Source: Candidatus Aenigmatarchaeota archaeon (GTDB lineage: Archaea > EX4484-52). Taken from it: a DNA stretch of 64,000 bases. Below, one piece after another: positions 1 to 61,623 of the stretch. The notes under the pieces were generated by a model, which saw nothing but the letters and a program-made list of their open reading frames with translations, did no database searches and was not told the DNA's origin. The stretch covers positions 106,242 to 170,241 of the forward strand of contig JAGLPV010000001.1 of assembly GCA_023137195.1 (NCBI GenBank), in the 5' to 3' direction. Made by a program: the position numbers and the translations under genes. Numbering within the stretch: the first letter of the stretch is position 1; the number at the start of each line of letters is the position of its first letter.

Positions 1-800
1 ATGTCTTTTGCTTTTTCATCCCAGAGCATTTTAAAAAATAATTTTGTCTGTTCAATAAATTCGGGATTACGTGATACGAAAACCTGATCATTTTTCCCCT
101 CTCTGCCGTTAGGAGGGAGCAGATATATAGTAGTTTTTGTTTCTGTCATACATCTTCTTACTGTTTTGCAGTATTTTTCATCAATATGTTTTACTTTAAA
201 TCCAACTTCAACCATTTTTTTTGCAAATTTAAGGTTCTGGTTCGTGATAGGCACCATAAATTTAATATCCACCCCTTGTTTTATTTTGAGTTTTCCAAGA
301 ATAAAGAAGCGGTAATCGTATTTTGGTATCAAAATACTTGTTTCATTGCCCATATTGTAAATATAATTTTTGGCTTTGAAAAATTGATTATAATATAAAT
401 CCCTGACTTTTTTAGTCCCGACAACATCATAACCTAATCTCTCAAATACGGGCGATTGGAGACATGCGCAGAGTTTTCTTTCAATTTCTTTTCCATTCTC
501 TTTCAAATAATCCATTTTGTTTTTCTTGATTATGGAAAACATTGATTCAGGCTCGCACACAAGAAATTCCATAGTCTTGCCTTCTTCAATAGACCTTACG
601 AATCCCTTTTCTATCATATCTGAGAGTATCTTATATGCACGCTCTTTTTTCAGTTTGAGATACTCATCATCAATCAATTCATTGACTGTTTTTTGCCCGT
701 GTTGTGAAAGATGGCATATAATCAGGAATTCCTGCTCTGACAAGCCATAGAATACATTTAGCGCCTCTTTTTCGCCTTTGGTTAAGATGATTTCTTTCAT
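1..800 (-). CDS. TrmB-family transcriptional regulator, paralog of 1910-2725 (last ~5 codons and the stop lie beyond the window edge)
   Basis: Absent from the ORF track because no stop is in the window. Reverse-strand ATG at 798-800. Hand translation starts MKEIILTKGEKEALNVFYGLSEQE and at nt 59-3 reads FIEQTKLFFKMLWDEKAKD. This is colinear with the 271-aa ORF at 1910-2725 (MKEIGLSDNEREALKVLYDLTEQE ... FIEQTKEYYEMLWNIKAKE). N-terminal winged-HTH pattern typical of TrmB. Confidence 0.75.
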   Translation of the reverse strand, partial: MKEIILTKGEKEALNVFYGLSEQEFLIICHLSQHGQKTVNELIDDEYLKLKKERAYKILSDMIEKGFVRSIEEGKTMEFLVCEPESMFSIIKKNKMDYLKENGKEIERKLCACLQSPVFERLGYDVVGTKKVRDLYYNQFFKAKNYIYNMGNETSILIPKYDYRFFILGKLKIKQGVDIKFMVPITNQNLKFAKKMVEVGFKVKHIDEKYCKTVRRCMTETKTTIYLLPPNGREGKNDQVFVSRNPEFIEQTKLFFKMLWDEKAKD

Positions 801-839
801 ATCATTATTTAAACAATTACATCCAATACTAATTTTTAT

Positions 840-942
840 TATAGCAAAACACATAAATAATACAATATCTGTATTTAAATAGCATTTATGTATTTTGCCA
901 GTATCGCGCCACATACTTGCATTACTTTTGTGCCGCAATATA
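840..942 (+). repeat. Dispersed two-hairpin intergenic element, copy 1
   Basis: TATAGCAAAACACATAAATAAT..ATAGCATTTATGTATTTTGCCAGTATCGCGCCACATACTTGCATTACTTTTGTGCCGCAATATA. Hairpin 1 pairs 844-858 with 884-898 (15 bp, single C.A mismatch at 850/892). Hairpin 2 pairs 902-913 with 929-940 around the loop TACTTGCATTACTTT. Related copies are at 3089, 40187, 42692 (inverted) and 60919. Confidence 0.85.
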
Positions 943-2937: not shown

Positions 2938-3087
2938 ATGAATACAGATATTTTAGTAAGAATGAAGCAGGAAATGTTTGAACGGGGGAATATAAAAGAA
3001 GTAAACCGGATAAACAAGATGATAAATTTACGTGCTAGGCAACAAAGAGCAATGAATAAGCTTAACAAGCCAGTATTAACTATTTAG
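2938..3087 (+). CDS. Possible small basic protein (49 aa), hypothetical
   Basis: Below the ORF-track size cutoff. Hand translation gives MNTDILVRMKQEMFERGNIKEVNRINKMINLRARQQRAMNKLNKPVLTI. A GGGTGG Shine-Dalgarno-like motif lies a few nt upstream. It is the only plus-strand ORF in an otherwise empty 478-nt gap. Confidence 0.25.
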   Translation: MNTDILVRMKQEMFERGNIKEVNRINKMINLRARQQRAMNKLNKPVLTI

Positions 3088-3088
3088 C

Positions 3089-3201
3089 TATAGCAAAAAA
3101 CATAAATAATGCAATTGATACTCTAATAATATTCGGGAGATACTTATGTCTTTTGCTAGTATCTCACCCCACATACTTGTATTACTTTTGTGTTGTGAGA
3201 T
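3089..3201 (+). repeat. Dispersed two-hairpin intergenic element, copy 2
   Basis: TATAGCAAAAAACATAAATAATGCAA..TACTTATGTCTTTTGCTAGTATCTCACCCCACATACTTGTATTACTTTTGTGTTGTGAGAT. Hairpin 1 pairs 3091-3105 with 3144-3158 (one A.C mismatch at 3099/3150). Hairpin 2 pairs 3161-3173 with 3189-3201; its stem ATCTCAC/GTGAGAT replaces the ATCGCG/CGCGAT of other copies while the loop is conserved. Ends 3 nt from the radB stop. Confidence 0.85.
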
Positions 3202-4874: not shown

Positions 4875-7800
4875 TCACCTTTTACTTTTCATTGCTAACT
4901 CTTCGTTGAGCAGGGGGATTTGTCGTTTGATGTCTCTCATTATCTCCCCGTATTTTTTTATCCTGACGTGGTATGTGGTCTCGTTTAGTTTTTTTTCCTC
5001 GAAATATTCTCTTTGTGTTTCTGCTACCAGTTTCCTGACTGAACTCCATCTTGTGTTCAGGTTTTTTATTTTTTTTCTTATTATCCAGCATTCTATTCTT
5101 GTGCGTCCTAAGGCTGCGATTGTGGAAAGTAGGACGATTATGAAAATGATTTTGTTCCGGTTCTGCTTCAGGAAAGTGATTATGTTTCTTGAGGTTGCGT
5201 CGTAGAATGCTTTTACTTTTGTCTCTATTGCCTGCATTTCTGAGATTTTTTCGTAGGTCTTGTCTATTTGTTTGAGGCATTCCTCGTATCGCTCTGCCTC
5301 AAACTCGGTTTTGGAGGTGTTGTATACTTCCCAGACAGGGGTCTTGTTTATGTCCTCTGTCTGGATTATTGTGGATTCTAAGGCGTTTAGTTCGTCCAAT
5401 GCCCTGAAAGCTTTTTTCTTTAGGTCGTGGAGTTCATTGATTTTTTCATGGATTAGTGAATAGTCCGGGCTGCCGCCGGACTCTTCCAGGGCTAATTGAG
5501 CTTCGTATATTTGTTTGGCAAGAAAGAGAGTGTCGTTGTATCTTGTTGCAGGGAGGTTCTTGTTCAGGAGTTCATTCATGTCTTCTCCTGCCTGGAGAAG
5601 ATTGTTGTTTGTGTTGAAAGCGTCATCGGAGATACAGAATCCTGCCTGGGGCAGGAGTAAGAGAATAAATAATACGGCTGTTAACCTGGATTTCTTTTCG
5701 GCTCTTCTTGCCTTTAGAGAGGCAATCCTCTCTTCTACTTCCACCAGCCGCTCTGAATAGCTTTTCATCCTGTTTTCGTATATCCTTGTTTCCAGCTTGC
5801 CTGAGTTTAGGTAGAGTCTCTGGGACTCTTTTATTATGTTCAGGATCTTTTCTCTTTCTTCTGTTAGCCTGTCGTCTTCTTTCCTGAAGAATTTGAAGAG
5901 GTTTGCCTGAATAGTTTCGTATTTTATGCTTTCCTGGATTGCTTTGCTCATGCGCTTTTCGTACTGCATGAGGGTTTGCATGTATTCCCTCATGCTTAGT
6001 TTGCCTTCTATGAAGCATTCTCTTTGTGCTTCTTTGATTAGGCTTAGCAGGACGGATTCTTCTTTTTTCAGGTTTTTTAGTTTCCTGGTTATGAGGTCTA
6101 GTTTCAGTGCGAGGAAGCTGAAGAAGGATAATATTGTTATTAATATTGTTGCAATTATTATTTTGCCCCAGTTGTTTTTTGCAAATGCTACTATGTTGAA
6201 TATGCCGACTGTTTCTAATGCGTAGGTTACTTTTGCATCTTCTGCCCTCTTTAGGGCAGAGACAAAGTCGCCCCTGTCTAATGCTGCCTGGCTTAGGAGC
6301 AGTAGTCTTTTTGTCTTTGAGACGTCAATTCCGTCGTGTTCTGCCTGTGTTATTTTTTGGCGTATTTCATTTAAGAGTTCCAGGCAGTCAAATGCCTGCT
6401 GTTTGGTTTGCTGCATCTGTGCGTGTAGGTCTCTTGCTATCTCGTAGTCTTTTGTTTTTAAGGTGTTGTTTGCTGTGTTTAGGGATTCTCTGAGGTCTTT
6501 TGTGTTCAGGTTCTTCTGCTCTATCTCCCTGATGATTGCTTCTATCTTTTCAATGTAGTCTATTGCTTCCTGCCTGGAGATTTCCAGGATTATTAGCTTG
6601 ATTGTCCTTGTCTCTTTCATGTCTGTGGTAGGAGTGGTGTTGATTATTCCTTCAATTGTGAATATTAGCTTGTATTCTCCTCTTGTGAAATATTCCGGGG
6701 CTTCCAGGAATATTGTAAAGTTTTGGCTGTTGTTTTGGGGGATTAGGTCTGTGCGGGTCGGGTGGATTCTTAAGTATTTTGATAAAAATCCCTTGATGGA
6801 GATTGTGGTGTTTATTAATGCTCCTTCGAATGGGTTTTCTACTTCCAGGTTGAATTGCTGCTGGCGTCCTCTTAATAGTTCGTAGGTTGCATCGGTTTGG
6901 AATAGTTTTTGTCTTTGCTTTTCTGTTGCTGTTATTATTACGGAGAAGGGTGAGCCACCTCCACTACTGCTTCCGCCGGAACTACTGCCTGTGTAATGCT
7001 CTTCTATTATTGTTGTCGGTGCTCCGTCAACAGGGATGCAGATTTCCTTTATGTTCTGGGTCTGGAGGCAGTTGGAGCAGTTGGTGTAGAGATAGAAGCA
7101 ATAGCTTCCTGTCGCTACACCTGAGCCTACATATATTGTGAAAACCTGGGTCTTGTAATTTATGCCTGATGTGCAGCTGAAAAGTGATTCTGTGTTTTCT
7201 TCCGGGGTTGCTGAAACTCCTGATGGGAGGTTCATGAGGAAGATGGATAGATTTACTGCGTCCTCGTTTCCTATGTTTGTTATGCCGGTTGTTATCTGCT
7301 GGGAGTTTCCGGCATCGGTTGTTGCTATGCTTGATATTCCTGTGAATTCAAAGTATGGACCGGCAGGGATTATCTTGATGGAGGGGGTCAGGGTTGTGCT
7401 GTAGACGTAGTCTTCGTTGTTCTCTGTGCAGCTTAGGCAGCTGCAGTCTACAGGGATGGATATGCTTACGCTGTAGTCTGGTAAGTCTCCCGGGATTAGG
7501 GGGGTTATGTTTATCTGTCTTGTTTTTGTTGTTGGAGGGGATTCTAATATTATGTTTGATGTGTTGTAGTTAAAGAGCATGTCCTTGGATGAGGTAATGT
7601 ATGTTGAATTCGGGAGGGCGCAGGTGTAGTTGAAGTCGCCGGTGTTGTTGAATGTTATTGTTCCCAGGGTTGCGTTCTCGTTGATTATTGCGGTTTCCGG
7701 GGTGTTGGTTATGGAGATGTTTATTGTGTAGTCGTTCCATATTTGTAGGATATTATTTTGTGATTGGATTGTGTTGTTGTAGGTGTCGTTGGTCCATATG

Positions 7801-10800
7801 TAGTAGGTGTAGTTTCCCTTGGACTGGTTGGTTAGGGTTGTGTTGTACAGGGTTGTGCCCTGCATTGGTGTTGATGTCCAGTTGGTTGTGTTGTATGTGT
7901 CGTTTCTTTGGTAGTATAGTAAGACTGTGTGGATTGCTAAGTTGTCTGTTATGTTTGTGTGGATTGTTATGTTCATGTTTGGGTCTATGCCTGCTATAGT
8001 TAGCGGGGTGGTGGTTATTGAGTTTATTGTCGGTTTTCTGGTGTCGTTGGAGGTTATGTTTATTATTGCCTGGTTGGCGTTATGTAGCCAGTCGTAGGCT
8101 GTCAGGTTGAAGAGTATTAGTCCGGCGGGGAGGTTGGTGTAGTTGAATTGTGTGGTGTTGCCTGTGAAGGTTATGTTTGTTGTTTGGGTTTGTAGTACTG
8201 AGAATGTTGTGTTTAGGGTTGCGTTTGATAAGCCGTTGATTGACCAGTTTAGGGAATTATCTGTCCATTGTAATGTGCAGGAGATGTTGTCTGCCTGTGA
8301 TGCGGATATGGTTGAGTTTGTTGCATTTAGTATTATGGTTGTATTGGATGTGTTGTTGTGAGTGATGTTGCAGGTTGCGTTTATTAGTTGAGGCGGGGTT
8401 GAGTCTGTTGTCAGTGTTCTTGTTGTTGATGTGTTTGTGTCGTAGGTGTCTGTCACTGAGACATTCCAGTGGTGGATTCCGTCGGGGAGTAGGAGTGAGT
8501 GGGTTGTGTTTGTTGTTAGAGTGGTGTTGTGGATTGTTAGGTTGAATGTCTTGTTGTCGTTGTCGGGGTCGCTGCTGGTCCAGGAGAATTGTATTGTTTC
8601 GTTTGAGGAGTTTGTGTTGTTTGGTGGAGAGGTTAATGTTATTGTCGGGATTTGGTTTGGGACTGTTGTTTGTATTGTTGTGTTTGTGCAGTTGGAGCCT
8701 CCCGAGATGTTGCCGTCGCAGATGTTAATAGTTATGTTTATGTTCTGGTTCGGGGTCAGCCAGCCCCCGCTGATGTTGGCTGAGCAATAGGCTTGGGTGT
8801 TTGTTCCGTATGGGATGTTTAAGGTTCCTGTTAGGTTTGACTGGTTGAGTTGGTTGCTGTAGTGGACTGTGCAGTTTATTAGGTCTGTGTCTGTGTCGTG
8901 GTCTGTGGCTATGGTTGAGGTCATTATTCTATGTTCTGGGTTGTTTTGGATTTGCGGTGTGGTTAGAGATGGAGGGTAGTTGATGATTGTTGTGTTTTGC
9001 GTGCAGACCTGATCGGAGACCAGGTTGTACTGGTCTTTTATGTTTAGGCAGAAACTCCAGTTCTGGGCTTTTGTTGTGTACTGGTATTCTAAAGAGGCGT
9101 TGGTTAGGTTTGTTTGGGAGAGGATTCTGGTGTCGTTTAGGATGTCGTTTAAGTACCATTTTATTGTTGAGGAGATTATGTCGTCTCCTTCGGGTTCGTT
9201 GTAATTCCACAGGGCGGTTAGGTCCAGTGCTGTTGTTGTTGAGGGTAAGGTGGTGTTTGTTATGTTTGGTTTTTCATTTGGTATGGTTGGGTAAATAGTT
9301 CCGGTGTTGGTTGTTGCACCCATGTTGTCTTCGAAGACAAAATATATTGATACAGAACTGCCTACGGAGTAGTGGGATGTGTTGATTTCTTTTGAGCAGT
9401 TTACTGTTTGGTTGGATTGTGTTAATAGTTCTGTGGTGTTGCTGCCGTAGTGGATTTGGCAGCTGGTTATCTGGCCGTCAGGGTCTGTTGCGTTGGCGCT
9501 TGCTGTGAAGGCGTGTCTGTTTGGAGTGTTTTGGTATAGTGGTCCGTTTGTTGTTGGGTTTTGGTTGCCGCTTACGAAAGAGCCGCTTGAGGTTGTGGTT
9601 TGGTAGGGGTCTGCTGTTGTTAAAGTCCAGTCGTAGGAGGTGTTGGCATATACTGTGAAGTTTACTTTCCACGCGGTTGATTTTGTTGCGTTCTGGTTGG
9701 TCATTATGTCGATTTGCTGGGTGTAGGTTAGGGTTGTGTTTAGGATTGTTGTGTTTGCTGCTGTGGTATAGGTTATGTTTGTTGTGTTGGTTAGGTAGGA
9801 CTGGGGGGTGGGTATGGTTGTAGGGATGGTTTGGTTTGTGAATTGTAAGGTAGTTAGGGGGTTGTTGTTTATTTTTACTGTTGTTGATTGGTTTGAGTAG
9901 TAGAGGATTTTGGTATTGTTTAAGGTTATTGTGCCGTTTTCTAATGTGCAGGTTATGTTGTTGGTGGATTGTAAAGGGTGTGTGTAGTTGTAGGTTGTGT
10001 TCTGGGGGGTTGGGATTAGGTCTATCTGGTTGTTGTTTAGGTATATTCTTAGGTTTGTTGCGTTTACTGCATTTGCGAAGGTTATGTTTATTGTTGCGTT
10101 GTTTAGCGGGTTCGGGGTGGTTAGTTGATGGGTTGCGTTTGTTGTGTTGGTTATGGTGTGTTGGGTTGAGTTTATTGTCTGTGTTTTTTGGTTTAGGTAG
10201 TAGATTGTTAGGTTTGCCTGTCCTGTGGATTTTGGGTATAATGTTTGTAGTTCGTGTGTTTTGGTGGTGTTGTCTGTGTTTATAGTTGTTGTGTTTTGGG
10301 TTGTTTTTGTTCCGTTTTCTATGTATACTGTGAAATTTGCGTATATTATGTTGTCGTTTTCGTTGTCTGTTATGTTGGCAGTTAGGTTTATGTTGTCTGT
10401 TGGGGTTGCGGGTTCTGTGCTGACTTCAACTATGGTTGGGTTTGAGTTCATCCTGAACCATAGGTTTGATTCATTGAAGGCGGAGCATATCCACGGGTCG
10501 CAGGCTTTTAGCTGGAAGGTGTAGTTTTTGCCGTCTTCTAAGGCCACGCGGTGGCCTAAGGTCATTTGTCCTTCGTTGTTGAAGTTGGTTGTTGTTATGT
10601 TGTTGTCGTATTGGTATGATGCGCCCTCTTCTTTTACCCATGCTTCTATTCTTAGGGTGTCGTTCTCGTCGTCTGATGGGTTGGTCCAGTTTATTTTTGG
10701 ATTTGGAGTGATTACATGTAGTGTGTCGTTGAAAGCGTCGTTTATTATTAGGTTTAGGTTGGATGGTGTGGATGGTATCTTGTTTGGGATTTGCTGGCTT

Positions 10801-13800
10801 ATCTGAGAGGAGTTGGATTTGTCGAAAGTGTCGTCTGCTTCGACTATAATGTCTATCCAGTCTCCGACGTTGAAGTTTGAGCAGGTTGTTGTGTTGACTT
10901 CTAAGCTGGATGTGCCGGAGCTTATTATTGAGGAGGGGATCATATTTACAGAGCATGATGAGCCGCTTGTTGTGTCGGTTAGGTATGCTTTGCAACTGAA
11001 TGTGTCTGAGTCAGGGTCGTTTGCAGAGGCGGTGAGGTTGAAGGCATGTTTGTTGTTGATTGTGTTAGCTCCAGTGCTGCTGAATGTTACTGCGTGGTTT
11101 GGAAGGGTGTTGTTTATGTGGGTTGTGATGTTGGTTGTGTCGGAGGTGTCTTTGAATTCTATGTATGTTTCTATGTTGTTTTTGATGTCGTTGTCGAGGT
11201 ATCCTGTTGAATCTGAGATTGTGCTTGTGCAGTTGCAGGAACTGCTGTCACAGGCTAAGGTTCCTGTGAAATAATGCCATCCTGCGCTTGGGTCTGTAGG
11301 GTTGTAATAGTAAATTCTGCATGAAGAAATATCAGATGCTCCGTCAGGGTCAGTGGCATTGCCGATAAGAGTAAAGCAATGTCCGTTGGAACAGTTTGTG
11401 ACTGTAAAGGAATAGATTGCAGGGGCATAATTTGGCAGGTAATATTCCTGTGTATTTGAACTTCTTTCTTTGGTGTAAGTATCTGTAAAGGAAATACTGA
11501 AATTTGCTGTTGTTCCTAAAATTATGTCAGATTCATTAATCAATAAAGTGCATTTTGTGGGAGTAGATGTATTGTTCAGAATTCCGTATTTATTACTCCA
11601 CTGGCAGTCGGAACAGTGGACATAGCAGTTCGTAAATTTGCCCGAACCGCCCGTGTGGGTTGCATTTGCAGAGATGTTGAACTTGTGTCCTGTGATGTCT
11701 TCAAAGTTCAAATCTGTAATGAGGATAGTGTTTGTATGGACTGTTCTTTCTGTATCTGAGCTCCAGTTCATGGTGTCATTTGCCCATAAATTGAATTTGT
11801 GGGTGTGGTTTGAAACAGAGAGGTTGTTGTAGTATCCCCAACTTGATGAAGTGTATTTTTTTAGTTCGGATTGGTAATGCATTTTTATTTCGTCTGCTGT
11901 TAGGGAATGATTGTAGATTTTTACTTCGTCTATTGTTCCGTTGAAATTTTTAATATTTGTACTCCATCTGCCGAGGTATAGTGTTCCATCATTTTCGTTT
12001 ATTGTTCCTGTTGTGTCTTCACAGATTACTTCATCACTATTTTTGTATGCACATTTACTGGAGCCGTTGTAAGTAAATGCCAGATGAATCCATTCATCTA
12101 TTGATAAAACATTATTGACATTAAGGGTATCATCTGAAAGACCGTAAGTTCTCCAGAAAATATGACCTGTCGTACTCCATCCATATTCTATATAATAACT
12201 GCCCACCTTATTTAAGATTAATTTAGAATCTCCCGATAAATCTAAATTATTTGGTTTGATCCACAACAAAATAGTTTGTTCCTGTAAATCCAGACTATCC
12301 TCTGTCCCACAATCAACATAATCATCCACTCCATCAAATTTCAGACCAGTGCCGAACTTTCCATCAATATATTTTGCCCTGATTCTGCTTATGCTCCCTA
12401 ATACATCGGTCAAATTGTAAGTTTGAGTTGTTGTAATTCCTCCTGCCTGAGGAGTTCCTGCATTGGCGTTGTTGTAATAGATGTAATAGTTTGAGTCTGA
12501 ATTTCCGCTGTTAATCTGGGCTTCTGCGTTGAACCATACAATAGTTTCTGAAGAGTTGAAAGAAGTTGTATTTGTTCTGTTAATTTCACTTACTCCGTGG
12601 ACAATTCTTAAATCAGTTCCGTTTGTTAATAGTTTTCCGGCAGAGACTAAAGAGGCGGTGTTTATTGTTATGTTTATTGGCTCGCCTATTGATAGGGCTG
12701 ATGCATTGTTGTTTGTTATGGTGAGTTTCTTCCTGTATTTGTAGTCTTCATTCCACCAGTTAGAGCCGGTTACGATTGTTCCGTCATTTGCGTATTTGGA
12801 GATGTCTACCGCCTTTGTGCTGTTTTCTCCTATTGCTGAATTGTTGTTGAAGTTTAATGCCAGGACCAAAGAATTGTCGTGTAGAGTTGAATTTATCCAT
12901 GTTGTCCCATTGTGCCAGTTGAATTTTAATGTGTCTAAATGGTACTCGTCTATCGTTAGATTTAGTTCTGTGTAGTTTTGCGTTCGGTATGTGTTGTTAG
13001 CTGGGGTTGGGTCTTTCCATGAATAAGATGGTGGTGTTGCATCTATTGTCAGGGTTCTTGTTTGGGTTTGGTTTATATTTCCTGCCTTATCCTGGGCATA
13101 AGCAGTGTAAGTATATTCTCCGTCGGATAAACCTGTGAAGTTGTGGTATAGTCTGTGTAGTCCTGCGTCGTATGTGGCGTTTATTTCTTCTATCGAGATG
13201 GCACGGTTGTAGAGTTTTACATCATCGATTGTGCCGTTGAAAGCACCGTAAACATCAAATCCCTGTGATGCACTTATATCTGCGGGAGCGCCACTTGTAG
13301 AAGCTCTTAATATACCATCAACATACAATCTCTGATATGTCATTGTCTTGACATAAGTTATATGATGGAATTGATTTACGTTTAGAGAACCTGTGCACCA
13401 TGCATGGTTACCCGAACTTGCTGAACGGAACCGGATTCCATTATTACAATATCTATCTCTATAACATGCACGCATATGTCCGCTGGAATAGGAATTAAAT
13501 ACCAACACACATGAAACAATATCGCCTGATGCAGGGTATTGTGGTATTGCTTCATGTTTCTTGTACCAAAAGGAATAGGTGAAATCATTCGAAAGGTCAA
13601 GGAAATTAGCTGTATTCATTGAATCATCTGTCCCGTCAAATGCAAGAGCATTTCCGAATTTACTATTTGAAGTCAAACCAGAACAATCACCAGTGCAGTT
13701 GTCTATTCCTGTATTCATATTTGCTGTCGTAGCGTTGTTTCCATGACTTGAAAAGTCCTGTACTATTGTACCTAAATCTTCGTCCATTCTCAACCAGGCA

Positions 13801-16800
13801 ACCAAAGAATTGTTCCAGTCAATTAAAGTTGTTGTGTCGCTTGAATCAGTTATTGTTGTATTTACATAACTATAATCCCTGGTAACTATAGCCTCGTTAC
13901 TATCTGTCTGATTAACGAACTCTATATGAGGAGGAGTTGTGTCTATGTTAATAGTTCTTGTTGCTGAATTGATATTGCTTGCTGAATCCTGGGTGTATGT
14001 GGTGTATGTGTATGTTCCGTCGTTTAGGTTTGTGAAGTTGCGGTATAATCTGTGGAGTCCTGCGTTGTAGGAGGCGTTTATTTCTTCTGGTGATAAAATC
14101 CGGTTCCATATTTTTATTTCATCAATTGTACCATTGAAATAATATACCCATTTACCGACTTCTAAATCAGCACTTATATGATTATGTGTTATATTCGAGT
14201 ACCATTGATTGTTACAAGCATCATCCTCTCCATCAATATAAAGACATAATCTCTCATTTGGTTTGTCAACAACACCAACAACATGGTGCCATTCACCAAA
14301 ACTTATTAATCTTGACCTGTATGAATATCCAAAAGTACTATTGTCCGCGACGGTTAAATGAATATCATTTGCGGACCAACCTCTTGTAACAAGACCATAT
14401 TGCGTTGAACCCCAACTACCTCCTGTTCTTGCTACAATTCCCGAACTTTCAACATTACTTTCCCTGTAAATCCATGCTTCTATTGTAAGTTCATTTACTA
14501 TGTCTAAATTATCGCCCATGTTGACATAATCATTGTTTCCGTCAAACATTAGTCCTTTTCCGAATCTTGATGAAGATGTCCAGCCGGAACTTCCGTTGTT
14601 AATTCCAGAACTCATGTTTGTTAAAGTTCCGTTGTTGTTATATGTAGAACTGTCTTCAGTAGTTAGTCCGGTTCCTTCATTAAATCTCCACCAGCCGACC
14701 AATGAATTATTCCAGTCGATAAAGGCAGTGATATTATTTGTGTCTGTTGTTGTTGTGTTAATATAAGTATAATTCCTGCTAACATAAGCATTGTCTGTGT
14801 CTGTTGGATTAACGTATGTGATAGTAGGATTTATTGTATCTATAGTTACTGTTCTGGTGGCTGAAATAATATTCCCTACTGAATCCTGCGAATATGTAGT
14901 GTAAGTATAAGTTCCTTCTAATAAATTTGTAAAGTTGTGATAGAGTCGGTATAATCCTGTGTTGTAGGATGCATTGATTTCTTCCGGACCCAATACGCGA
15001 TTGTGTATTTTTACTTCATCTATTGTCCCGTTGAAAAAAGAAGTAATTCCGCTTACATCGTGATATCCGGCACCCATTATTATTTTACCATTGGTGGCTT
15101 GAGGATTTGGCTGATTGTCGTCCTGGACAACCAAACTCCCATTCAAATAAAACATTACGGTTTCACCATTTCTTATTATAGTAATATAGTACCATTCATC
15201 TGTGTTAATGCCTCTGCTACCAACAAGCCCCTCGTTGCTACAACCGGATTCGGATACAGAAACGGATGCACCGTCAGTATATATTCTGGGGTTATAGAAA
15301 CAATCTCCGGCATTGCCTCTGCGAAAAACTTCATCACTGCCGGTTGTGTTATCTACTTTAAACCAGAAGGAAATTGTATATATTGTATCTTCAGAACTAA
15401 CAGAACTACAATCAACATAATCATTTGCTCCGTCAAATATGATTGCGTTGCTAAACTTGCCTACTGTTGTCCTGCCGCTTGTGCCGTTGTCTATTCCTGT
15501 ATTCATATCAGTCATCGTCCCGTTGTTGCCATTGCCTGAAAAGTCTTCTACATTAGTGCCATTATTTTCATTCATTCTCCACCATGCAACCAATGAGTTG
15601 TTCCAGTCTATGAAGGATGTTATATTGTTTGTATCTGTTATTGTTGCATTAATGTATGTGTAATTTCTGCTGATGTAAATATTGTCTGCATCGGTTGGGG
15701 CAGTATATTCTATTGACGGGTTTGTTGTATCTATTGTTATTGTTCTTGTCTGGGTCTGGTTTATATTTCCTGCCATGTCCTGTGTGTATGCTGTGTATGT
15801 GTAGATGCCATCGTTTAGATTTGTGAAATTATGGTATAGTCTGTATGACCCTGTGTTGAAATCTGCTCTTACATCTACTGAGTTCAAAGCCATTTTCCAT
15901 ATCTTGATTTCATCTATTGTGCCGTTGAAATAATCCATTGATGCGCTCCACCCGAGAATGAAACTGTCGTATGTCAGGTTTTCTTTTGGAGTTATCCACT
16001 GCCAGCCGGCTTCATTTCCATTTACATAAAAATACATCTTTGTTGTGTTGTATACTGCCGCGAGATGAACAAATTCATCACTTGTCTGCGGTTTTGTTAT
16101 AATCCTGTCTATTGATGGAGTTATATATCTCAAGTGGTATTCGGAGTTTCTCAGGGCAAGATATGTATAAACCGGGCTGGTTGCTTCGCGGCTGGAATAT
16201 ATTGATTTTTGTTCACTAAATACATCTGATGTCCATAAAGGGTGTTTTATCCACAGAGATACTGTGTATCCTGTGGTCACAAAATTTGTAAATATATCTG
16301 ACCTGTTGAGTTTATCATTCCCGTCAAAACTTCTGGCTCCACCGAACTTTCCTGCGTTGGTGTATGTTGAACCGCTGTTGTCCGGGTTGTTGCTATATGT
16401 AGAATGGTCGGATAAATCAGAGCTGTTGTCGAACCGCCACCAGATGATTAAGGAATTGTTCCAGTCTATGAATGAGGATATATTATTTGTGTCTGTTGTT
16501 GTTGCGTTTATGTATGTGTAGTCTCTGCTTACGTAAGCGTTGTTTGTGTCGGTTGGATTGATGTAGGAGATAGTTGGATTTATTGTGTCTATTGTTATTG
16601 TTCTTGTTTGGGTTTGGTTTATGTTTCCGGCTGAGTCCTGGGCGTAAGTGGTGTATGTGTGGGTTCCGTCGTTTAGGTCTGTGAAGTTGTGGTAAAGGCG
16701 GTTGAGTCCTGCGTTGTAGGAGGCGTTGATTTCTTCCTCAGATAATGCCCTGTTGTAGATACGGACTTCGTCTATTGTACCATTCCACAGTCTATAATCA

Positions 16801-19800
16801 GATAAATAATATATTCCTCTCCCGATACGCATTGCTTCGCCCACATGATTATACATTGATGTTGTAGCTATAACAACATCGCCCTTATTACCATCAACAT
16901 ACACTATAATATGTGTTCCGTTCCACACACCAACTAAGTGATACCAAGTGTTTAATGATGGAGAGAGTTGAGTATATTTTGCTATACGCCAATTGCTATC
17001 TCCATCTTTTGTTTGTAGTTTAAACCAATCATTACCTACATCATATCTTAATTCAATGCTTCTGCCTCCATCTGCTTTACAAACAACACACTGGTCATCA
17101 CCTTTACTTATCATATATGCCCATGCTTCTATTGTAAAACTATTAAATGTGCTTAATTCTAAGTTGTCTATTGGCAAACCAACATAATCATTCACGCCGT
17201 CAAACTGCAAGGCGTTGCCGTATTTTCCGGATGATGTCCGACCGCTTGTTCCATTATTTATGCCGGTATTCATGCCTGCTAATGTGCCAATATTGCTATG
17301 TCCTGAAAAGTCTTCTGCTGTTGTGTCGCTTTCTTCATTCATTCTCCACCAGCCGACTAAGGAGTTGTTCCAGTCTATGAAAGCAGTTATGTTGTTTGTG
17401 TCGCTTGTTGTTGTGTTTATATAAGTATAATTCCTGCTGACGTAAACATTGTCTGTATCTGTCGGGTCGACGTATTTTATTGATGGATTTGTTGTGTCGA
17501 TTGTCAGTGTTCTTGTTGTTGAGTTTATATTTCCTGCTGAGTCTTGTGCGTATGCTGTGTAAGAATAAGTTCCATCTGTAAGAGAGGTGAAGTTGTGGTA
17601 GAGTCTGTATAAACCTGCATTGTAGGATGCGTTGATTTCTTCAGGGCTTAGGGCGCGGTTGTAGATTCGGAATTCATCTATTGAGCCATTGAATGGGACT
17701 GCTGATGTTGGTCTTGCACCAATATCCCAATTTAAAGAATAATTTATTAGACTCCAATCTCCCGTTGTTCCGCTTCCATTGACATAAGTATCATCATATA
17801 TAAAATAGACATCTGGATTCCTTAAAACCACACCTACAAAATGCCATTCATTTGCTGGTATGTTCGCTGCATAACTAGACATCATGCCTCCTTTCAGCCA
17901 TAAATCATTTGTATTCTCTACTTGGAATTCGATACCTCTGGAAGGCGTCGATATAAAGTTAGATATGATAGATCCCTCTGACGATGTTTTGAACGTTTCA
18001 GGTGTTTTTATCCAAGCCGTAATTGTTAGATTTGAACCATAAAAATTGGCTGTATTTAATGGTAAGTTCATATAATCATTATCGCCGTCAAACTCTAAAG
18101 CCGAGCCGAATTTACCTGATTCGTAAACAGGGCAATTGGTGCAGGTTCCGTTGTTGCCGTAACTGCTGTAATCTTTGAAGAATGTTGTATTTTCTCCGGG
18201 TTCCTGGTTGAATCTCCACCAGCCTACTAAGGAATTGTTCCAGTCCATGAAGGCAGTTATGTTGTTTGTGTCTGAGGTTGTTGTGTTTATGTAAGCGTAG
18301 TTGTCTGAAATGTATTTGTTGTTGCTTGGAGTAGGTGAGGTAAAACTTAGTTGCGGTGGTGTGGTGTCGAGAGTGCCGTTGCTTACGAATATGTCCCAAT
18401 TTTGGCTTGCTGTTGGTCCGCCTTCCTGATTTGGCAGACTGTCGAAATAGTCTTTTTTTAGGTTGTATTGGTTTGATATTTCTGTTGCATTTAATGCCCT
18501 GTTCCAGATTTTTACCTCGTCGATTGTGCCGTTGAAATATCTATTATCTGATGAATACCATCTTCCAATTCTAACTATATCAACTAAATTAACTAATGAA
18601 CCCGTCGCACTTTGCGATTTCTCCAAAATACCATTTACATAAAGAATATGTTTCGAGCCGTTATAAGTTGTTACTAAATGATACCACTCCTTAACTAAAG
18701 GCGTTGTTGGATTGTTGTCCATTTTATTTGCTTGAGATGTATTTCTTACAGAACATGCAAAACAATCATTTCCAATATCATACCATAACATAAACTTTCC
18801 GCTACTACCCGAATCGGTAATTACCACCATATCTTGACTTTTTTTATCTAAATTTACCCATGCACTGAACGTAATATCCTCTGTTACATCCAAACTCGCA
18901 TCATTCCCACAATCAACATAATCATCAACACCGTCAAAGTCCAGAGCATTCCCAAACTTGCTCGAAATTGTCCAGTCTGGCGGGTAGCCGTACAAAGTTC
19001 CTGTATTGCCCTTACCACTGCTGTCTGTTGCTAGGTCTGATGTTCCTCTTTCATCAAATTTCGTGTGCAAGACCAGTCCTTCACTGCTTATATTGGTTTC
19101 GAGTCCTGCCAAGCCGCGTTGGTAGTCCCAAGATATTTCGGTTGCGTTTAGGGTTCGGTTGTAAAGCATAATGTCATCAGCCATTCCTTTTGTGTATCTA
19201 TTATAATGATTCATTATAACAATCGGGTCAGTATTAACGCCATTATTAGTATCATTTATGCTTATTGCTGTTGCATCAGAAGAACCATCTGTATATAGAT
19301 ATAATTTATCCTCTGTCGCATTTTTAACAACAGCTATATGATGCCAGGTATCATCACAAACTACAGAAGTAGATTCTATGCTGTTGGATACTGTTGAATT
19401 ATAAGAAAGACCAAATGAATGATGTCCATTATCTCTAACATTCCAAAGGTAAGAAGGGTATAATATGCTTGTATCGTGATAACCTTTTGTAATCAATCCA
19501 TCGTTTGTATTAGTATCTGGTATTTTAATCCACATCATGAAAGTAAACGAAATACCTGTAGGAAATTCCAAATTACTATTATCTATTATACTAACATAAT
19601 CATTCGTTCCGTCAAAGTTCAAAGCACCGCCAATCTGTCCGGTAGTCCATTTGGTTTGTCCGCCTGTAGATGGGTTTAAAGTTCCGTCATTGTTATTCAA
19701 AGAATAGTTTGCACGGTCTTTTGCTGTTGCGCCTTGATTTTCGTTGAAATTTAAGCATAATACCTGTCCTGTGATGTTGCCGGATTCACAGGTGTCAACC

Positions 19801-26271: not shown

Positions 26272-28308
26272 TTATTCGCCAAAATTAAAATTTTCTTTAA
26301 TGACTCCTTTAGCAAATAAATTTCCATTTTCATCTAATTTCATTATTCTTTCTCCTTTTTGATTTAAGAAATAAAGTGCATTTTCTTCTACTGCCTCGGT
26401 AATCACAAAATTATTCGCGAATACCAAATCACTGTAATAGACATTACCTTTTACCTCTAAATCTCCATCTATTATGGCATTTCCCTTAATATGCACTTTT
26501 TTGCTTGGATTTGTTGTACCAATACCAAGATTCCCCGATTGAGGTTGAATATAAAACAAGGTATTTGTATTTGATGATGTACTTTCCTCTGCACCCCAAA
26601 CTATAGTGGGTTCAGGCGAAGCGTATTTGCGGAAAGGATTTAGAGCATCTCCCCCAAAATAGTCTGCGGATTGACCGTAAGAATTAGCTCCCTGGCAAAG
26701 AGCATCTCCATTAGATTTTAAAATACAACTATGCCAGTATCCCGTAGCAACGCCAATAGCATCTCCTCTATTATAATTGTTTGATTGACCGTTACCATTA
26801 TGACCATAGCAAAATACATCTCCATTAGACCGAAGGATACAAGTATGTGTGGATCCTGCAGCAACGCCAATAGCATCACCATTAGTGTAATTGTTTGCTC
26901 TGCCAAACATATTATCCCCATAACACTCTACATTGCCGTTGGATTTTAAGATACATGTGTGATAATATCCCGCAGCGACACCTATTGCATCACCCTTAGT
27001 GTAATTGTTTGCCTTCCCACCGTCATTAGATCCCCAACAAATTACATTTCCATTGGATTTAAGAATACAATTATGATTACCATCGGCAGCAATACCAATC
27101 GCATCGCCATTGTTATAATCGTTTGATTGACCCCAAGTATTACCTCCGTTACAATCCACATTACCATTGGATTTAAGGATACATTTATGGTTAAATCCTG
27201 CCGCACCACCTATTGCATCTCCTCCATTGTAATCATTAGCCTCTCCTAAAGGAGAATTTTCTCCATAACAATCTACATTTCCATTAGATTTAATAACACA
27301 GGTATACACCTCTCCTGCAAAAACACCTATTGCATCTCCCCCATTGTAATCATTTGCTTGACCTGTAGGATTCCCTACAGCATCATGATTTTTCCCATAA
27401 CAATCTACATTTCCATTGGATTTTAAGATACAGGTATGACCATATCCTCCCGCCATACTTATTATTTCTCCTTCTTTTTCCTGTGCTTCAGAAATTTCGT
27501 AATCAAATACTCCTCCATAAATACCTAAATTAATGATATTGTCCCACTGCTTGCTGTTATCTAATAATGCTGGATTTCCATAATGCATATATATTGTTTT
27601 TATTCCTGCTGGAATTGAAGGAACTTTTACCCATAGTTTTGTATTCGCTGAATCACAACCACCTTCTAAAAAATAAGCTAAAGCATTTCCTTCTTCATCC
27701 CTAAATCTTATATCTCCACAATCCGCTCTCATTTTTCCGGCTGAGATTAAAATAGCAGTATCTTTTGTAAGATAGACCGAATAATCTTTCAAATCAGAAC
27801 CTGTATTGGTAATTGTTATTGGATTTCGGTAATTGCCATCCAGAGGAGCAGATAGTTCAAAAGGAACTGTATTTATATCTGAAGTTTTAACGTGAAGTTT
27901 TGCTGTGGGTGAATTTGTCCCAATGCCAACATTGTCTGTATTTGAATTATATATATCATTTCCGCTTGTAGCCCAGTTACTACTTCCACTGCCATCTGCA
28001 CAAATCCATTTGTCATTTGTATTGTTGTATTTTAAAATTTGGTTATTTAAACAGTAAGAACCAGATGGTTTTATGCCTTTTAATTCACCACCAAGATAAG
28101 CATCTCCGCTGACATTTAAGCTTTTATAGACATAAATCATGGTTTTAGTGACATTAAAATAATCCCATAAATCATCCCATACTCCTGCCGTCAGGCTTAT
28201 CTCATCCCATCCGAAGAATTGCAGGGGTGCCATCCTTCCTGCGTGAGCATTGATAGAAAGAAGAAGAATGCATAATGTTAATATCAAAATGATATTTTTC
28301 GTTTTCAT
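26272..28308 (-). CDS. Secreted DUF2341-domain protein with a seven-repeat RCC1-like beta-propeller
   Basis: 678 aa. Signal peptide MKTKNIILILTLCILLLSINAHA. DUF2341 pattern YRNPITITNTGSDLKDYSVYL...CGDIRFRDEEGNALAYFLE...KLWVKVPSIPAGIKTIYMHYGNPA. Seven repeats of H(T/K/N/S)C(I/V)(L/I)(K/R)SNG(N/D)VxCxGxNxxGQ(A/S)N(D/N)Y..GDAIG. Confidence 0.75.
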   Translation of the reverse strand: MKTKNIILILTLCILLLSINAHAGRMAPLQFFGWDEISLTAGVWDDLWDYFNVTKTMIYVYKSLNVSGDAYLGGELKGIKPSGSYCLNNQILKYNNTNDKWICADGSGSSNWATSGNDIYNSNTDNVGIGTNSPTAKLHVKTSDINTVPFELSAPLDGNYRNPITITNTGSDLKDYSVYLTKDTAILISAGKMRADCGDIRFRDEEGNALAYFLEGGCDSANTKLWVKVPSIPAGIKTIYMHYGNPALLDNSKQWDNIINLGIYGGVFDYEISEAQEKEGEIISMAGGYGHTCILKSNGNVDCYGKNHDAVGNPTGQANDYNGGDAIGVFAGEVYTCVIKSNGNVDCYGENSPLGEANDYNGGDAIGGAAGFNHKCILKSNGNVDCNGGNTWGQSNDYNNGDAIGIAADGNHNCILKSNGNVICWGSNDGGKANNYTKGDAIGVAAGYYHTCILKSNGNVECYGDNMFGRANNYTNGDAIGVAAGSTHTCILRSNGDVFCYGHNGNGQSNNYNRGDAIGVATGYWHSCILKSNGDALCQGANSYGQSADYFGGDALNPFRKYASPEPTIVWGAEESTSSNTNTLFYIQPQSGNLGIGTTNPSKKVHIKGNAIIDGDLEVKGNVYYSDLVFANNFVITEAVEENALYFLNQKGERIMKLDENGNLFAKGVIKENFNFGE
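26630..27465 (-). repeat. Intragenic tandem ~111-117-bp repeats encoding the RCC1-like blades
   Basis: Seven successive CILKSNGNV-type units are visible in the translation. The corresponding DNA repeats TTTTAA(G/A)ATACA..ATG.. on the plus strand from ~26700 to ~27450. Confidence 0.7.
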
Positions 28309-40186: not shown

Positions 40187-40419
40187 TATAGCAAAACACA
40201 TAAATATAGCAGAACACATAAATAATGCAAAAAAATATAACGTGATATAATACAAAGATATAATATCTGTATTTAGATAGCATTTATGTATTTTGCCAGT
40301 ATCGCGCCACACACTTGCATTTTGTTCTTGTTGCACAAATGTGATGAGACAAGAACAAAATCTTAGAAGTAGTATGGATTGTAAGGAAACTTCCATGATT
40401 ACTTTTGTGCCGCGATATA
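40187..40419 (+). repeat. Dispersed two-hairpin element, copy 3 (expanded: duplicated 5' arm and a 77-nt insertion in the hairpin-2 loop)
   Basis: TATAGCAAAACACATAAATATAGCAGAACACATAAATAATGCAA ... ATAGCATTTATGTATTTTGCCAGTATCGCGCCACACACTTGCAT[40321-40397 insertion]ATTACTTTTGTGCCGCGATATA. The insertion contains a perfect 12-bp stem, TTTTGTTCTTGT (40320-40331) with ACAAGAACAAAA (40349-40360). The element ends 20 nt before the glnA ATG. Confidence 0.85.
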
Positions 40420-42691: not shown

Positions 42692-42740
42692 TATATTGCG
42701 GCACAAAAACAATGCAAGTAAATTTATGTATTATGCTATA
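42692..42740 (-). repeat. Dispersed element, copy 4 (inverted orientation, internally deleted)
   Basis: The reverse complement reads ATATAGCATAATACATAAATTTACTTGCATTGTTTTTGTGCCGCAATATA. The 5' arm of hairpin 1 is joined directly to the loop and 3' arm of hairpin 2. It sits between the ABC permease stop (42743) and the mscS start (42657). Confidence 0.7.
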
Positions 42741-60415: not shown

Positions 60416-60799
60416 ATGGAAACAAAAAAATTCTTAAACAAAAAGAACATCATTGCGATTGTGGGTGCTTCTTCTAACCCGGAAAAATGGGGGTGGAAAA
60501 TATACAAATCTATAAAATCTTCCGGTTCCTGTGTTTATCCAATAAATCCAAAATATCCGGAAATAAACGGGGCTGTCTGCTATCCTGATTTAAAATCGTT
60601 GCCAAAAAACCCAGATATGGTCGTGACTGTTGTCCCGCCAAAAATTACAGAGATGGTTGTAGAGGAATGTAAACGCCTTAAAATAAATAAAGTCTGGATG
60701 CAGCCGGGCTCGGAATCAGGAAAAGCTATAGCTTTTTGTAAAAGTAATAATATTGAAGTAATTTACAATGCTTGTTTTATGGGATTGATGAGAAAATAG
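60416..60799 (+). CDS. CoA-binding domain protein (YccU/YneT-like)
   Basis: 127 aa. NIIAIVGASSNPEKWGWKIYKSI, VYPINPKYPEINGAVCYPDLKSLP, and DMVVTVVPPKIT. Confidence 0.8.
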   Translation: METKKFLNKKNIIAIVGASSNPEKWGWKIYKSIKSSGSCVYPINPKYPEINGAVCYPDLKSLPKNPDMVVTVVPPKITEMVVEECKRLKINKVWMQPGSESGKAIAFCKSNNIEVIYNACFMGLMRK

Positions 60800-60918
60800 T
60801 GATTAAGTAGATACTAAAAAATATATATTAAATTCACCATGCAATAATATTAAGATACTACATATTTGATTTTTTGGACAAAGTTTAAAATAATTGAGTT
60901 TTTCTTACTTCGTATGAT

Positions 60919-61028
60919 TATAGCAAAACATATAAATAATGCAAAAAATATAATATATTTAATAGCATTTATGTATTTTGCTAGTATATCGCGCCACATT
61001 ACCTGCATTCCTTTTGTGTCGCGATATA
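60919..61028 (+). repeat. Dispersed two-hairpin element, copy 5 (overlaps the 5' end of the HAD hydrolase ORF)
   Basis: TATAGCAAAACATATAAATAATGCAAAAAATATAATATATTTAATAGCATTTATGTATTTTGCTAGTATATCGCGCCACATTACCTGCATTCCTTTTGTGTCGCGATATA. Confidence 0.85.
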
Positions 61029-61465
61029 AAGGAATTATTTTTGATTTTAATAGAACTCTGTATAATCCTGAAACTAATAATTTAACCCCGGGAGTTATTG
61101 ATTTACTTGCTTCTTTGAAAAATTCCGGTTATAGGTTGTGCTTAATCAGTAAAGCTACAACTGAAAATAGGAGAGAAGAAATATCTGATTTGGGTTTAGA
61201 CCCTTATTTTGTTTATATTCAAGTTAATGAAGGAAATAAAAATGCATCTCACTTTAGAAACTGTATGGATATTTTAGAGTGCAATCCTGAAGATATTTTA
61301 GTAATAGGCGATAGAATTAAAGGAGAAATTTACCTCGCAAATCAACTTGGGATGAAAACAATTTGGTATAAATCAGGAAAATTTTCAACTGAGCTTCCCT
61401 CTAATGAAAAGGAAAAACCTAATCATACAATAACTATCCTTTCAGATGTATTGAAATACTTGTGA
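60971..61465 (+). CDS. HAD-superfamily hydrolase
   Basis: Motif I region GIIFDFNRTLY (D-x-N variant), LISKATT (motif II S/T), and VIGDRIKGEI (motif IV). The start is uncertain: the ATG at 60971 and the GTG at 61016 both lie inside the repeat element. The track start at 60866 adds a non-HAD hydrophobic leader. Confidence 0.65.
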   Translation: MYFASISRHITCIPFVSRYKGIIFDFNRTLYNPETNNLTPGVIDLLASLKNSGYRLCLISKATTENRREEISDLGLDPYFVYIQVNEGNKNASHFRNCMDILECNPEDILVIGDRIKGEIYLANQLGMKTIWYKSGKFSTELPSNEKEKPNHTITILSDVLKYL

Positions 61466-61623
61466 AATATAGGAAATAAAAAACTTAACGCTTCAACTAC
61501 GTTGCGCTTGAACTTCATTTGTTTAGGACAGATAAAGGGGCTTATTATCGTTGGTATTTTCCTAAATTCTCACTTCATTTGGAACTCTTTAATTGAGGAA
61601 ATTAAATTGGGATAACAGAAACA

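Follow-up and report, generated by a model that had tools for sequence, protein, structure and literature searches.

A dispersed repeat of an uncultivated Aenigmarchaeota archaeon is probably a miniature transposon that duplicates TA

A 64-kb stretch of genomic DNA from an uncultivated Aenigmarchaeota archaeon (contig JAGLPV010000001.1; the whole stretch of 64,000 nucleotides is called the window below) contains five copies of a short dispersed repeat built around two hairpins. The original prediction had hesitated between a structured RNA, a MITE-like repeat and a portable promoter. The five-copy family is real, and we conclude that its members are probably copies of a ~106-bp non-coding, non-autonomous DNA transposon, i.e. 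a miniature inverted-repeat transposable element (MITE). The MITE option is supported by two features that had not been seen originally, terminal inverted repeats and a duplicated TA dinucleotide. MITEs are a familiar class of element, met here in a host that has been little studied, and no new type of system is involved. Readings as a structured RNA or as a promoter are minority possibilities, and bear mainly on secondary effects of the element.

All five copies were confirmed at their predicted positions. When the window was searched with the 26-nt motif of the left end, allowing up to three mismatches, five matches were found against 0.00 expected from dinucleotide shuffles: one each in copies 1, 2 and 5, and two in copy 3, because the first 18 nt of that copy are tandemly duplicated. 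The hairpin-1 3' arm and the right end gave three matches each, again with 0.00 expected. Repeat finding recovered the same families, as well as the inverted relation of copies 1 and 4, and nhmmer profiles of each module detected no further copy in the window. BLAST and nhmmer searches of fetched loci revealed a sixth copy in the same genome, outside the window (locus L021, 9986-9870), and at least five copies in a second host, the Guaymas Basin metagenome-assembled genome (MAG) 'Nanohalarchaeota archaeon B49_G9' (a DPANN archaeon, B49 below): L004 1-240, L004 5476-end, L005 300-1, L005 5708-5897 and L010 from 3760. The window matches contigs of MAG GCA_030639115.1, and the host sequence compared amounts to ~74 kb (the 64-kb window and 10 kb adjacent to it). 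The element is thus multicopy, with six copies in ~74 kb of one genome and at least five in another MAG.

The strongest trace of an insertion event is copy 5 (60919-61028, plus strand), whose 106-bp core (60921-61026) lies between two TA dinucleotides (60919-60920 and 61027-61028). It had been stated that all copies are intergenic or at gene 5' ends; copy 5 is in fact inside an annotated coding sequence, after codon 2 of a HAD-family hydrolase gene (60914-61465, plus strand) that carries it as a 108-bp (36-codon) in-frame insertion and stays open through it, with no stop codon. The HAD protein minus the element-encoded part was used as a query and returned 63 homologues of ~140-177 residues, nearly all with full query coverage. 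In an alignment of 13 of these, 12 begin with MI(K/R)GIIFDFNRT or MV(R)G, one begins with MKG, and none has an insert; the window protein, which reads MI, then 36 residues, then KGIIFDFNRT, is the only aligned protein with extra residues. The window DNA reads ATGAT-TA-[TAGCAAAAC...GTCGCGATA]-TA-AAGGAATT. Excising 106 bp and one TA yields ATG ATT AAA GGA ATT, which encodes MIKGI; the reconstructed empty site is ATGATTAAAGGAATT, and two homologues carry ATGATAAAGGGA and ATGATAAAAGGA at the insertion point.

A duplication of 0 bp or of 4 bp (TATA) would break the reading frame, and a 2-bp TA duplication alone restores both the frame and the conserved N-terminus. Since only a TA duplication restores MIKG, copy 5 is an insertion that duplicated TA. 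At the level of sequence comparison, a TA target-site duplication is shown at this site, as expected of an element mobilised by an IS630/Tc1-mariner enzyme. TA also flanks all intact ends in both genomes, with the degenerate right end of copy 2 as the sole exception; at the copies other than copy 5 this TA is not separable from the element itself. Copy 5 shows that the element inserts at a TA dinucleotide and duplicates it. This copy landed 5 nt into the coding sequence, where it has survived because the 108-bp insertion is in frame and free of stop codons.

A related strain, ~92% identical, was also compared (L020 5440-5700 against window 60790-61630). It joins the CoA-binding gene to the 3' end of cofD, and its scaffold has neither the HAD gene nor the MITE. 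The scaffold contains an N-gap and a switch from 92% to 99.9% identity; it may be chimeric rather than a real deletion, and was not used as evidence.

The anatomy of the element was deduced from an alignment of 11 copies from both genomes. The core is ~106 bp long and the copies span 49-233 bp, under ~500 bp. The element is bounded by TAGCAWAACACATAAATAATGCAA and TTGCATTWYTTTTGTGCCGYGATA; its left terminus reads TA|TAGCAAAACACATAAATAATGCAA and its right terminus TTGCATTACTTTTGTGCCGCGATA|TA. The left end, TATAGCAWAACACATAAATAATGCAA, is followed by an AT-rich spacer and by ATTTATGTRTTYTGC, an inverted copy of the left end, which pairs with it to form hairpin 1. ATATCRCGCCACA pairs with the right end (TTGCATTWYTTTTGTGCCGYGATATA) to form hairpin 2. 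We therefore read each hairpin as one end paired with an internal inverted copy of itself. The two ends are also imperfect 26-bp inverted repeats of each other, with 17-19 of 26 positions in agreement when anchored at the termini. Shuffled ends agree at 8.5 +/- 2.1 positions on average, and the observed agreement was equalled by none of 200,000 shuffles; the agreement remains significant without the self-complementary TATA (p = 1.2e-4), and the proportion of random 26-mers of the window that match as well is 8e-5. No open reading frame (ORF) is common to the copies, as a stop codon of copy 1 falls in the frame that is open in copy 5, so the element has no coding capacity.

Longer forms of the element contain optional modules. 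Copies from B49 have an additional 87-nt middle module with two hairpins. A further module of ~76 nt, itself made of two hairpins, is inserted in the hairpin-2 loop of copy 3 (40322-40397, plus strand) and of two B49 copies, at the same site in both genomes; that of copy 3 is 75% identical to that of one B49 copy (L005 1-111, minus strand), and is bordered left and right by ATT. Either the module is nested by insertion and prefers this site, or it is part of an ancestral long form that was shortened by deletion between TTTTGT repeats. Two other interpretations of the anatomy were tried and rejected. A kissing-loop or pseudoknot pairing of TAATGCAA with TTGCATTA reduces to the inner part of the terminal inverted repeats, and template and variable repeats of a diversity-generating retroelement were dropped from consideration, as the copies have no coding sequence and do not differ specifically at A.

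Identity among the copies is 77-95%, and one tandem duplication, one internal deletion and truncated copies are seen, a decay spectrum typical of selfish repeats. Copy 1 (840-942, plus strand) is a full-length short form of 103 bp including the flanking TAs (840-841 and 941-942). Its left terminal inverted repeat (840-865, TATAGCAAAACACATAAATAATACAA) doubles as the hairpin-1 5' arm (844-858), and its right one (917-942, TTGCATTACTTTTGTGCCGCAATATA) includes the hairpin-2 3' arm (929-940); once reverse complemented, the right end equals the left at 17 of 26 positions. The internal inverted copies of these ends lie at 884-913, as the hairpin-1 3' arm (884-898) and the hairpin-2 5' arm (902-913). 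Copy 1 is flanked by the stop codon (987) of a Methyltransf_33 gene and, on the other side, by the ATG (800) of a minus-strand TrmB-like gene.

Copy 2 (3089-3201, plus strand) is the most diverged, ~77% identical to the others; its right-end TA is mutated (GAGATGA), its hairpin 2 has two compensatory pair changes, and it lies between two convergent gene ends, those of a 49-aa ORF (stop 3087) and of a RadA/KaiC-like gene (stop 3204). Copy 3 (40187-40419, plus strand) is an expanded form of 233 bp, with the 18-nt tandem duplication of the left end (40187-40204), an added spacer in the hairpin-1 loop and the optional module; its right end is 20 nt upstream of the glnA ATG (40439). Copy 4 (42692-42740, minus strand) is inverted and internally deleted, as originally described. 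It keeps ~20 nt of the left end (42721-42740) and the entire right end (42692-42717), its interior is gone so that neither hairpin can form, and it lies 35 nt upstream of the mscS ATG (42657). That this copy retains the ends and has lost both hairpins supports the MITE reading.

Both hairpins fold as described, with z-scores of -2.3 to -5.6. Hairpin 2 is 97.8% paired across seven copies and two of its pairs are changed on both sides (three cells), which 12 of 500 shuffles equalled; hairpin 1 is 88.8% paired, with no covariation beyond that of shuffles. Stable folds and compensated pairs would be expected of a structured non-coding or cis-regulatory RNA family, made of two hairpins with optional helices, transcribed with its neighbours or alone and conserved for its RNA function. 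The B49 copies have compensated positions in their middle hairpin as well, the optional modules form additional helices in the folds, closed by the hairpin-2 stem, and most copies are sense to a neighbouring gene (six of the seven that have co-directional flanking genes). Against such an RNA family, hairpin 1 lacks covariation, copy 4 has kept two ends and no hairpin, and copy 5 is intragenic, with a duplicated TA. The conserved 15-nt loop that had been attributed to hairpin 2 (15-17 nt) is explained in part by the ends: the terminal inverted repeat on the right contributes its inner half to the loop, and the remainder of the loop lies outside the repeat.

A mismatch at one and the same position of the hairpin-1 stem had been noted originally, which would be a G.U or U.G wobble in a minus-strand RNA. 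This mismatch is real in the window genome's copies (C.A, or A.C in copy 2) but it is a C-G pair in three of four aligned B49 copies, and is therefore one inherited transition rather than an independent structural signal. Furthermore, whenever one arm of a DNA palindrome has undergone a transition, the mismatch will read as a wobble on one of the two strands. The minus-strand argument fails, as the mismatch is inherited and G.T/C.A polarity varies by copy and by helix: hairpin 2 has a plus-strand G.T in copy 6 and a minus-strand G.T in copy 1. Good folds were obtained for both strands, with no consistent preference. Folding was better on the minus strand in copies 1 and 2, about equal on both strands in copy 5, and modestly better on the minus strand in copy 6 (-34.0 compared with -31.5 kcal/mol); of the four copies whose B49 middle hairpin was folded, two (L004a and the L005 copy on the reverse strand) did better on the plus strand, and the other two were near-equal. 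Mixed mismatch polarity favours DNA-level palindromes over a transcript of fixed strand.

The original prediction had called for an Rfam search, which gave no match to the element. No family reached its gathering score (the sole window hit was a tRNA), and even at E <=10 there were only chance-level hits, far below gathering. Motifs of C/D and H/ACA small RNAs and K-turns were sought by eye, and their boxes are absent. Compensatory-looking changes in quasi-palindromes can come from templated correction between arms. The hairpins, which are modestly maintained, may owe this to such correction, to the needs of transposition, or to RNA-level selection in read-through transcripts. With no Rfam match, no hairpin-1 covariation, two double-changed pairs in hairpin 2 and a hairpin-less copy 4, the structured-RNA option is weak, and we regard a conserved RNA family as highly unlikely.

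If the element is a MITE, it would have been moved by cut-and-paste by a trans-acting DDE transposase of the IS630/Tc1-mariner type; this enzyme is deduced from the ends and the target, and no partner was seen. A TA duplication together with ~26-bp ends is the signature of IS630/Tc1-mariner elements. ISY100 is an example of such a TA-duplicating element (PMC2170065). A partner was sought among IS630 homologues, of which there were 1120 at E <=1e-20, mostly on contigs of ~1.1-1.5 kb, a size that suggests many copies per genome; ten contigs carried one member with unrelated ends. This insertion sequence (IS) is present in a related archaeal contig (L025 18164-19259) and in ten groundwater or archaeal contigs (L033-L042), where it encodes a 338-aa DDE_3 transposase, has 28-bp terminal inverted repeats, and duplicates TA. 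Its ends read TA|TAGATAATTCTG...CAGAATTATCTA|TA, an architecture of TA|TAG...CTA|TA. In the ten-contig set the left flank varies between insertion sites, and TA lies on either side at the three places whose right junction is distinct. The IS shares only the TA+TAG start with our element, and is therefore not its parent.

A different enzymology was considered, in which the repeat belongs with REP/BIME-like or IS200/IS605-derived (PATE-like) hairpin elements and a hairpin-recognising Y1 (HUH) transposase moves it in single-stranded form. REP/BIME and IS200/IS605-derived elements are not known to have terminal inverted repeats or to duplicate their target site, and Y1 transposases recognise similar left and right hairpins. 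The mosaic of consecutive palindromic units with optional modules, and hairpins kept by compensatory changes, resemble such elements, and no IS family is more abundant in archaea than IS200/IS605 (PMC13343696). Here, terminal inverted repeats and a TA duplication are both present, the two hairpins are dissimilar in sequence, and no TnpA, TnpB, RAYT or Y1 gene occurs in the loci examined. These properties are not those of a REP or PATE element, and mobilisation by a Y1 enzyme appears very improbable.

Several observations weigh against a MITE moved by an IS630-type enzyme. First, no transposase gene was found in the 64-kb window or in the adjacent 10 kb of the same genome, nor in the B49 loci examined, and neither the window nor the loci examined (~74 kb of host genome) contain an IS whose ends match. 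With no matching IS, IS630-type mobilisation is inferred; the IS630 elements of L025 and L033-L042 have nothing but TA+TAG in common with the element, and nhmmer gave no match to them. Second, the target-site duplication is seen at one site only, and rests on a protein-level comparison with 45-60% identical homologues rather than on the empty site of a sister strain. Third, the terminal inverted repeats are only ~70% matched. Finally, the high pairing and compensatory changes of hairpin 2, and the predominance of sense-oriented copies, hint at a constraint acting on the RNA or on the hairpin itself, one that would not be needed if the element were purely selfish.

The position of the copies relative to genes was compared with that of TATA boxes of the same genome, using 50 gene starts (L001, L018 and L021) and a position weight matrix (PWM) built from the genome's own boxes. 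In most genes a TTTAWATA-like box ends 19-25 nt before the ATG, most often at -21 to -23, and Shine-Dalgarno (SD)-like motifs occur in few of the genes surveyed. Box positions this close to the ATG indicate that most mRNAs are leaderless or nearly so. Relative to the nearest outward-facing start, the flanking TA lies at about -40 for copy 1 (left end, minus-strand gene), -21 for copy 3 (glnA), -35 for copy 4 (mscS), +6 for copy 5 (HAD), -23 for copy 6 (the L021 gene) and -28 for the B49 copy upstream of a CBS gene. Insertions therefore cluster in or beside core promoters, and this clustering fits a preference for TA in AT-rich, TATA-box-like DNA. In this mostly leaderless genome, the AT-rich core-promoter zone, 20-40 nt before a start, is where most copies have inserted. 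The HAD gene has a native TATA-like box, GTTTAAAA, 23 nt upstream of its ATG (60914), a normal geometry for this genome.

It had been proposed that the 3' end of the element, 20-35 nt upstream of, or inside, start regions, could act as a TATA box. The spacing stands: at glnA, mscS, the L021 gene and the L005 CBS gene, the right end with its TA precedes the ATG by 20-35 nt, and native boxes of this genome end 19-25 nt before it. The sequence scores poorly against the genome's TATA consensus: the junction boxes have PWM scores of -0.7 to 2.4, native boxes average 7.7 and do not fall below 4.2, and the 99th percentile of the background is 4.2. A box conserved in the left repeat, CATAAATA, reaches 5.7, above that percentile, and could fire rightwards through the element. 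These figures bear on the idea that the repeat is a portable promoter or regulatory DNA cassette, which has spread by giving a TATA box, from the right end or from the interior of the left end, to downstream genes; Neisseria Correia elements do make promoters at their ends (PMC2649163, PMC10969869).

Not all copies are placed as such a cassette should be. Neither copy 1 nor copy 2 precedes a co-directional gene: the former points away from all plus-strand genes, and the latter is set between convergent gene ends. The mscS gene keeps a separate, weak TATA-like box of its own, TTTTAATC, between the element and the ATG (it ends at -20, PWM 3.7). SD-like motifs are present at the genes downstream of the L021 and L005 (B1) copies, and the L021 gene follows a co-directional upstream gene, so it may be expressed by read-through. 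Inverted-repeat ends, the TA duplication and an intragenic copy would also be left unexplained, and a cassette selected for its promoter is in our view very unlikely. A TATA-box role of the right end with the duplicated TA is possible as a side effect only, and any transcriptional effect of the MITE would come either from the candidate left-end TATA-like box or from the GATA+TA junction at the right end. An NrpR operator upstream of glnA was also considered and rejected, GGAAACTTCC having the wrong spacing.

The gene content of the window is archaeal, with an ATP-dependent DNA ligase, a CDP-alcohol phosphatidyltransferase, a TBP-like protein and RadA/KaiC-like ATPases. When public genomes and metagenomes were scanned for exact patterns, the element turned up in B49_G9 and its source metagenome and in 'Aenigmarchaeota archaeon ex4484_52' only, the latter as a solo left end. 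In the metagenome scan only the Guaymas contigs were genuine; 7 of 10 matches look like chance, judged from their flanks. Scans of viral sequences gave nothing relevant. The glnA-syntenic loci of three related archaea (L024-L026) contain no copies, and their glnA upstream region was dropped as a candidate empty site, synteny being too different. A tblastn comparison of the window genome with the B49_G9 loci found no genes in common, so host divergence is not estimable from them. An assembly break at an element copy was looked for at the right contig end, and the contig does not end in this way.

Gene callers extend ORFs through these elements, which leads to annotation errors. The public call of the first TrmB-like gene starts at a TTG (938) inside copy 1 and is over-extended by 46 codons; comparison with its paralogue places the true start at the ATG at 800 (MKEI...). 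These TrmB-like paralogues (window 1-938 and 1910-2725, both minus strand) have 5' ends ~71-78% identical in DNA. The 36-codon insertion in the HAD protein is easily mistaken for a native N-terminal domain. Beyond annotation, it is of interest that an element family persists in a DPANN genome that is small and streamlined, and that the family's range of identities and its truncated or deleted forms look like repeated past transposition. The element also offers a testable case of TA-targeted insertion in an archaeon with mostly leaderless mRNAs.

Other features of the window were noted. An uncalled 49-aa ORF (2938-3087, plus strand; MNTDILVRMKQEMFERGNIKEV...) is preceded by a consensus TTTATATA box (2871-2878) and by an SD-like GGGTGGT, and copy 2 begins one base past its stop codon. 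A giant ORF of 5673 aa (4875-21896, minus strand) encodes at least 11 Laminin_G_3 (concanavalin-like) domains and Big_13 Ig-like domains; its DNA has ~890-nt repeats, and the NCBI MAG assembly breaks within it. A 678-aa protein (26272-28308, minus strand) has RCC1 repeats and DUF2341, and its DNA contains seven ~114-nt tandem repeats (26683-27489). In this small DPANN genome, toxin genes of the ParE and PemK types lie between 47.6 and 50.8 kb of the window; with the small partners upstream of them, they probably form toxin-antitoxin pairs.

Compared with known systems, the element resembles IS630/Tc1-mariner MITEs by its duplicated TA target, its ~26-28-bp inverted-repeat ends and a left end reading TA|TAG, and MITEs in general by being short, non-coding and multicopy. 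It differs from the IS630 ISs in that its ends are unrelated beyond TA+TAG, its right end begins with TAT and not TAG, and no partner transposase was found. An internal inverted copy beside each end gives it two separate hairpins instead of one end-to-end foldback. MITEs have already been described in archaea, in Sulfolobus, Halobacterium, Haloquadratum (PATEs) and Desulfurococcus (PMC10969869). These are of the same kind and from the same domain, likened here by description and not by sequence, but the host lineage (Aenigmarchaeota/DPANN) and the sequence family differ. No paper dealing specifically with MITEs of Aenigmarchaeota or DPANN came up in our literature search, whose coverage was incomplete. 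Rickettsia palindromic elements are palindromic, ~100-150 bp long, and insert in frame in protein genes whose ORF is kept open (PMC10969869). Copy 5 behaves likewise, being intragenic and in frame with an open ORF; the Rickettsia elements differ in being bacterial, mostly intragenic and without a clear TA duplication, whereas 1 of 11 known copies is intragenic here.

In function, the element comes closest to the Correia element of Neisseria (CREE/NEMIS), by analogy and not by homology, since the sequences are otherwise unrelated. Correia elements are ~100-155 bp long, have 26-bp inverted-repeat ends beginning with TATAG, duplicate TA and occur as internal-deletion variants. They differ from the present element in being bacterial and in making sigma-70 -10/-35 boxes, and IHF binding and RNase III processing are known for them. 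They lie mostly just upstream of genes, where their ends can form promoter boxes, and some copies disrupt coding sequences or are fused to them (PMC2649163, PMC10969869). It is conceivable, though doubtful, that the present MITE is an archaeal functional counterpart, one that favours the TA-rich core promoters of leaderless genes, with ends that take over or modulate initiation and a hairpin 2 that acts on 5' leaders. Candidate sequences for such an action would be the left-repeat box and the right-end junction described above. If this were so, the element would rewire the expression of housekeeping genes such as glnA in a reduced DPANN genome.

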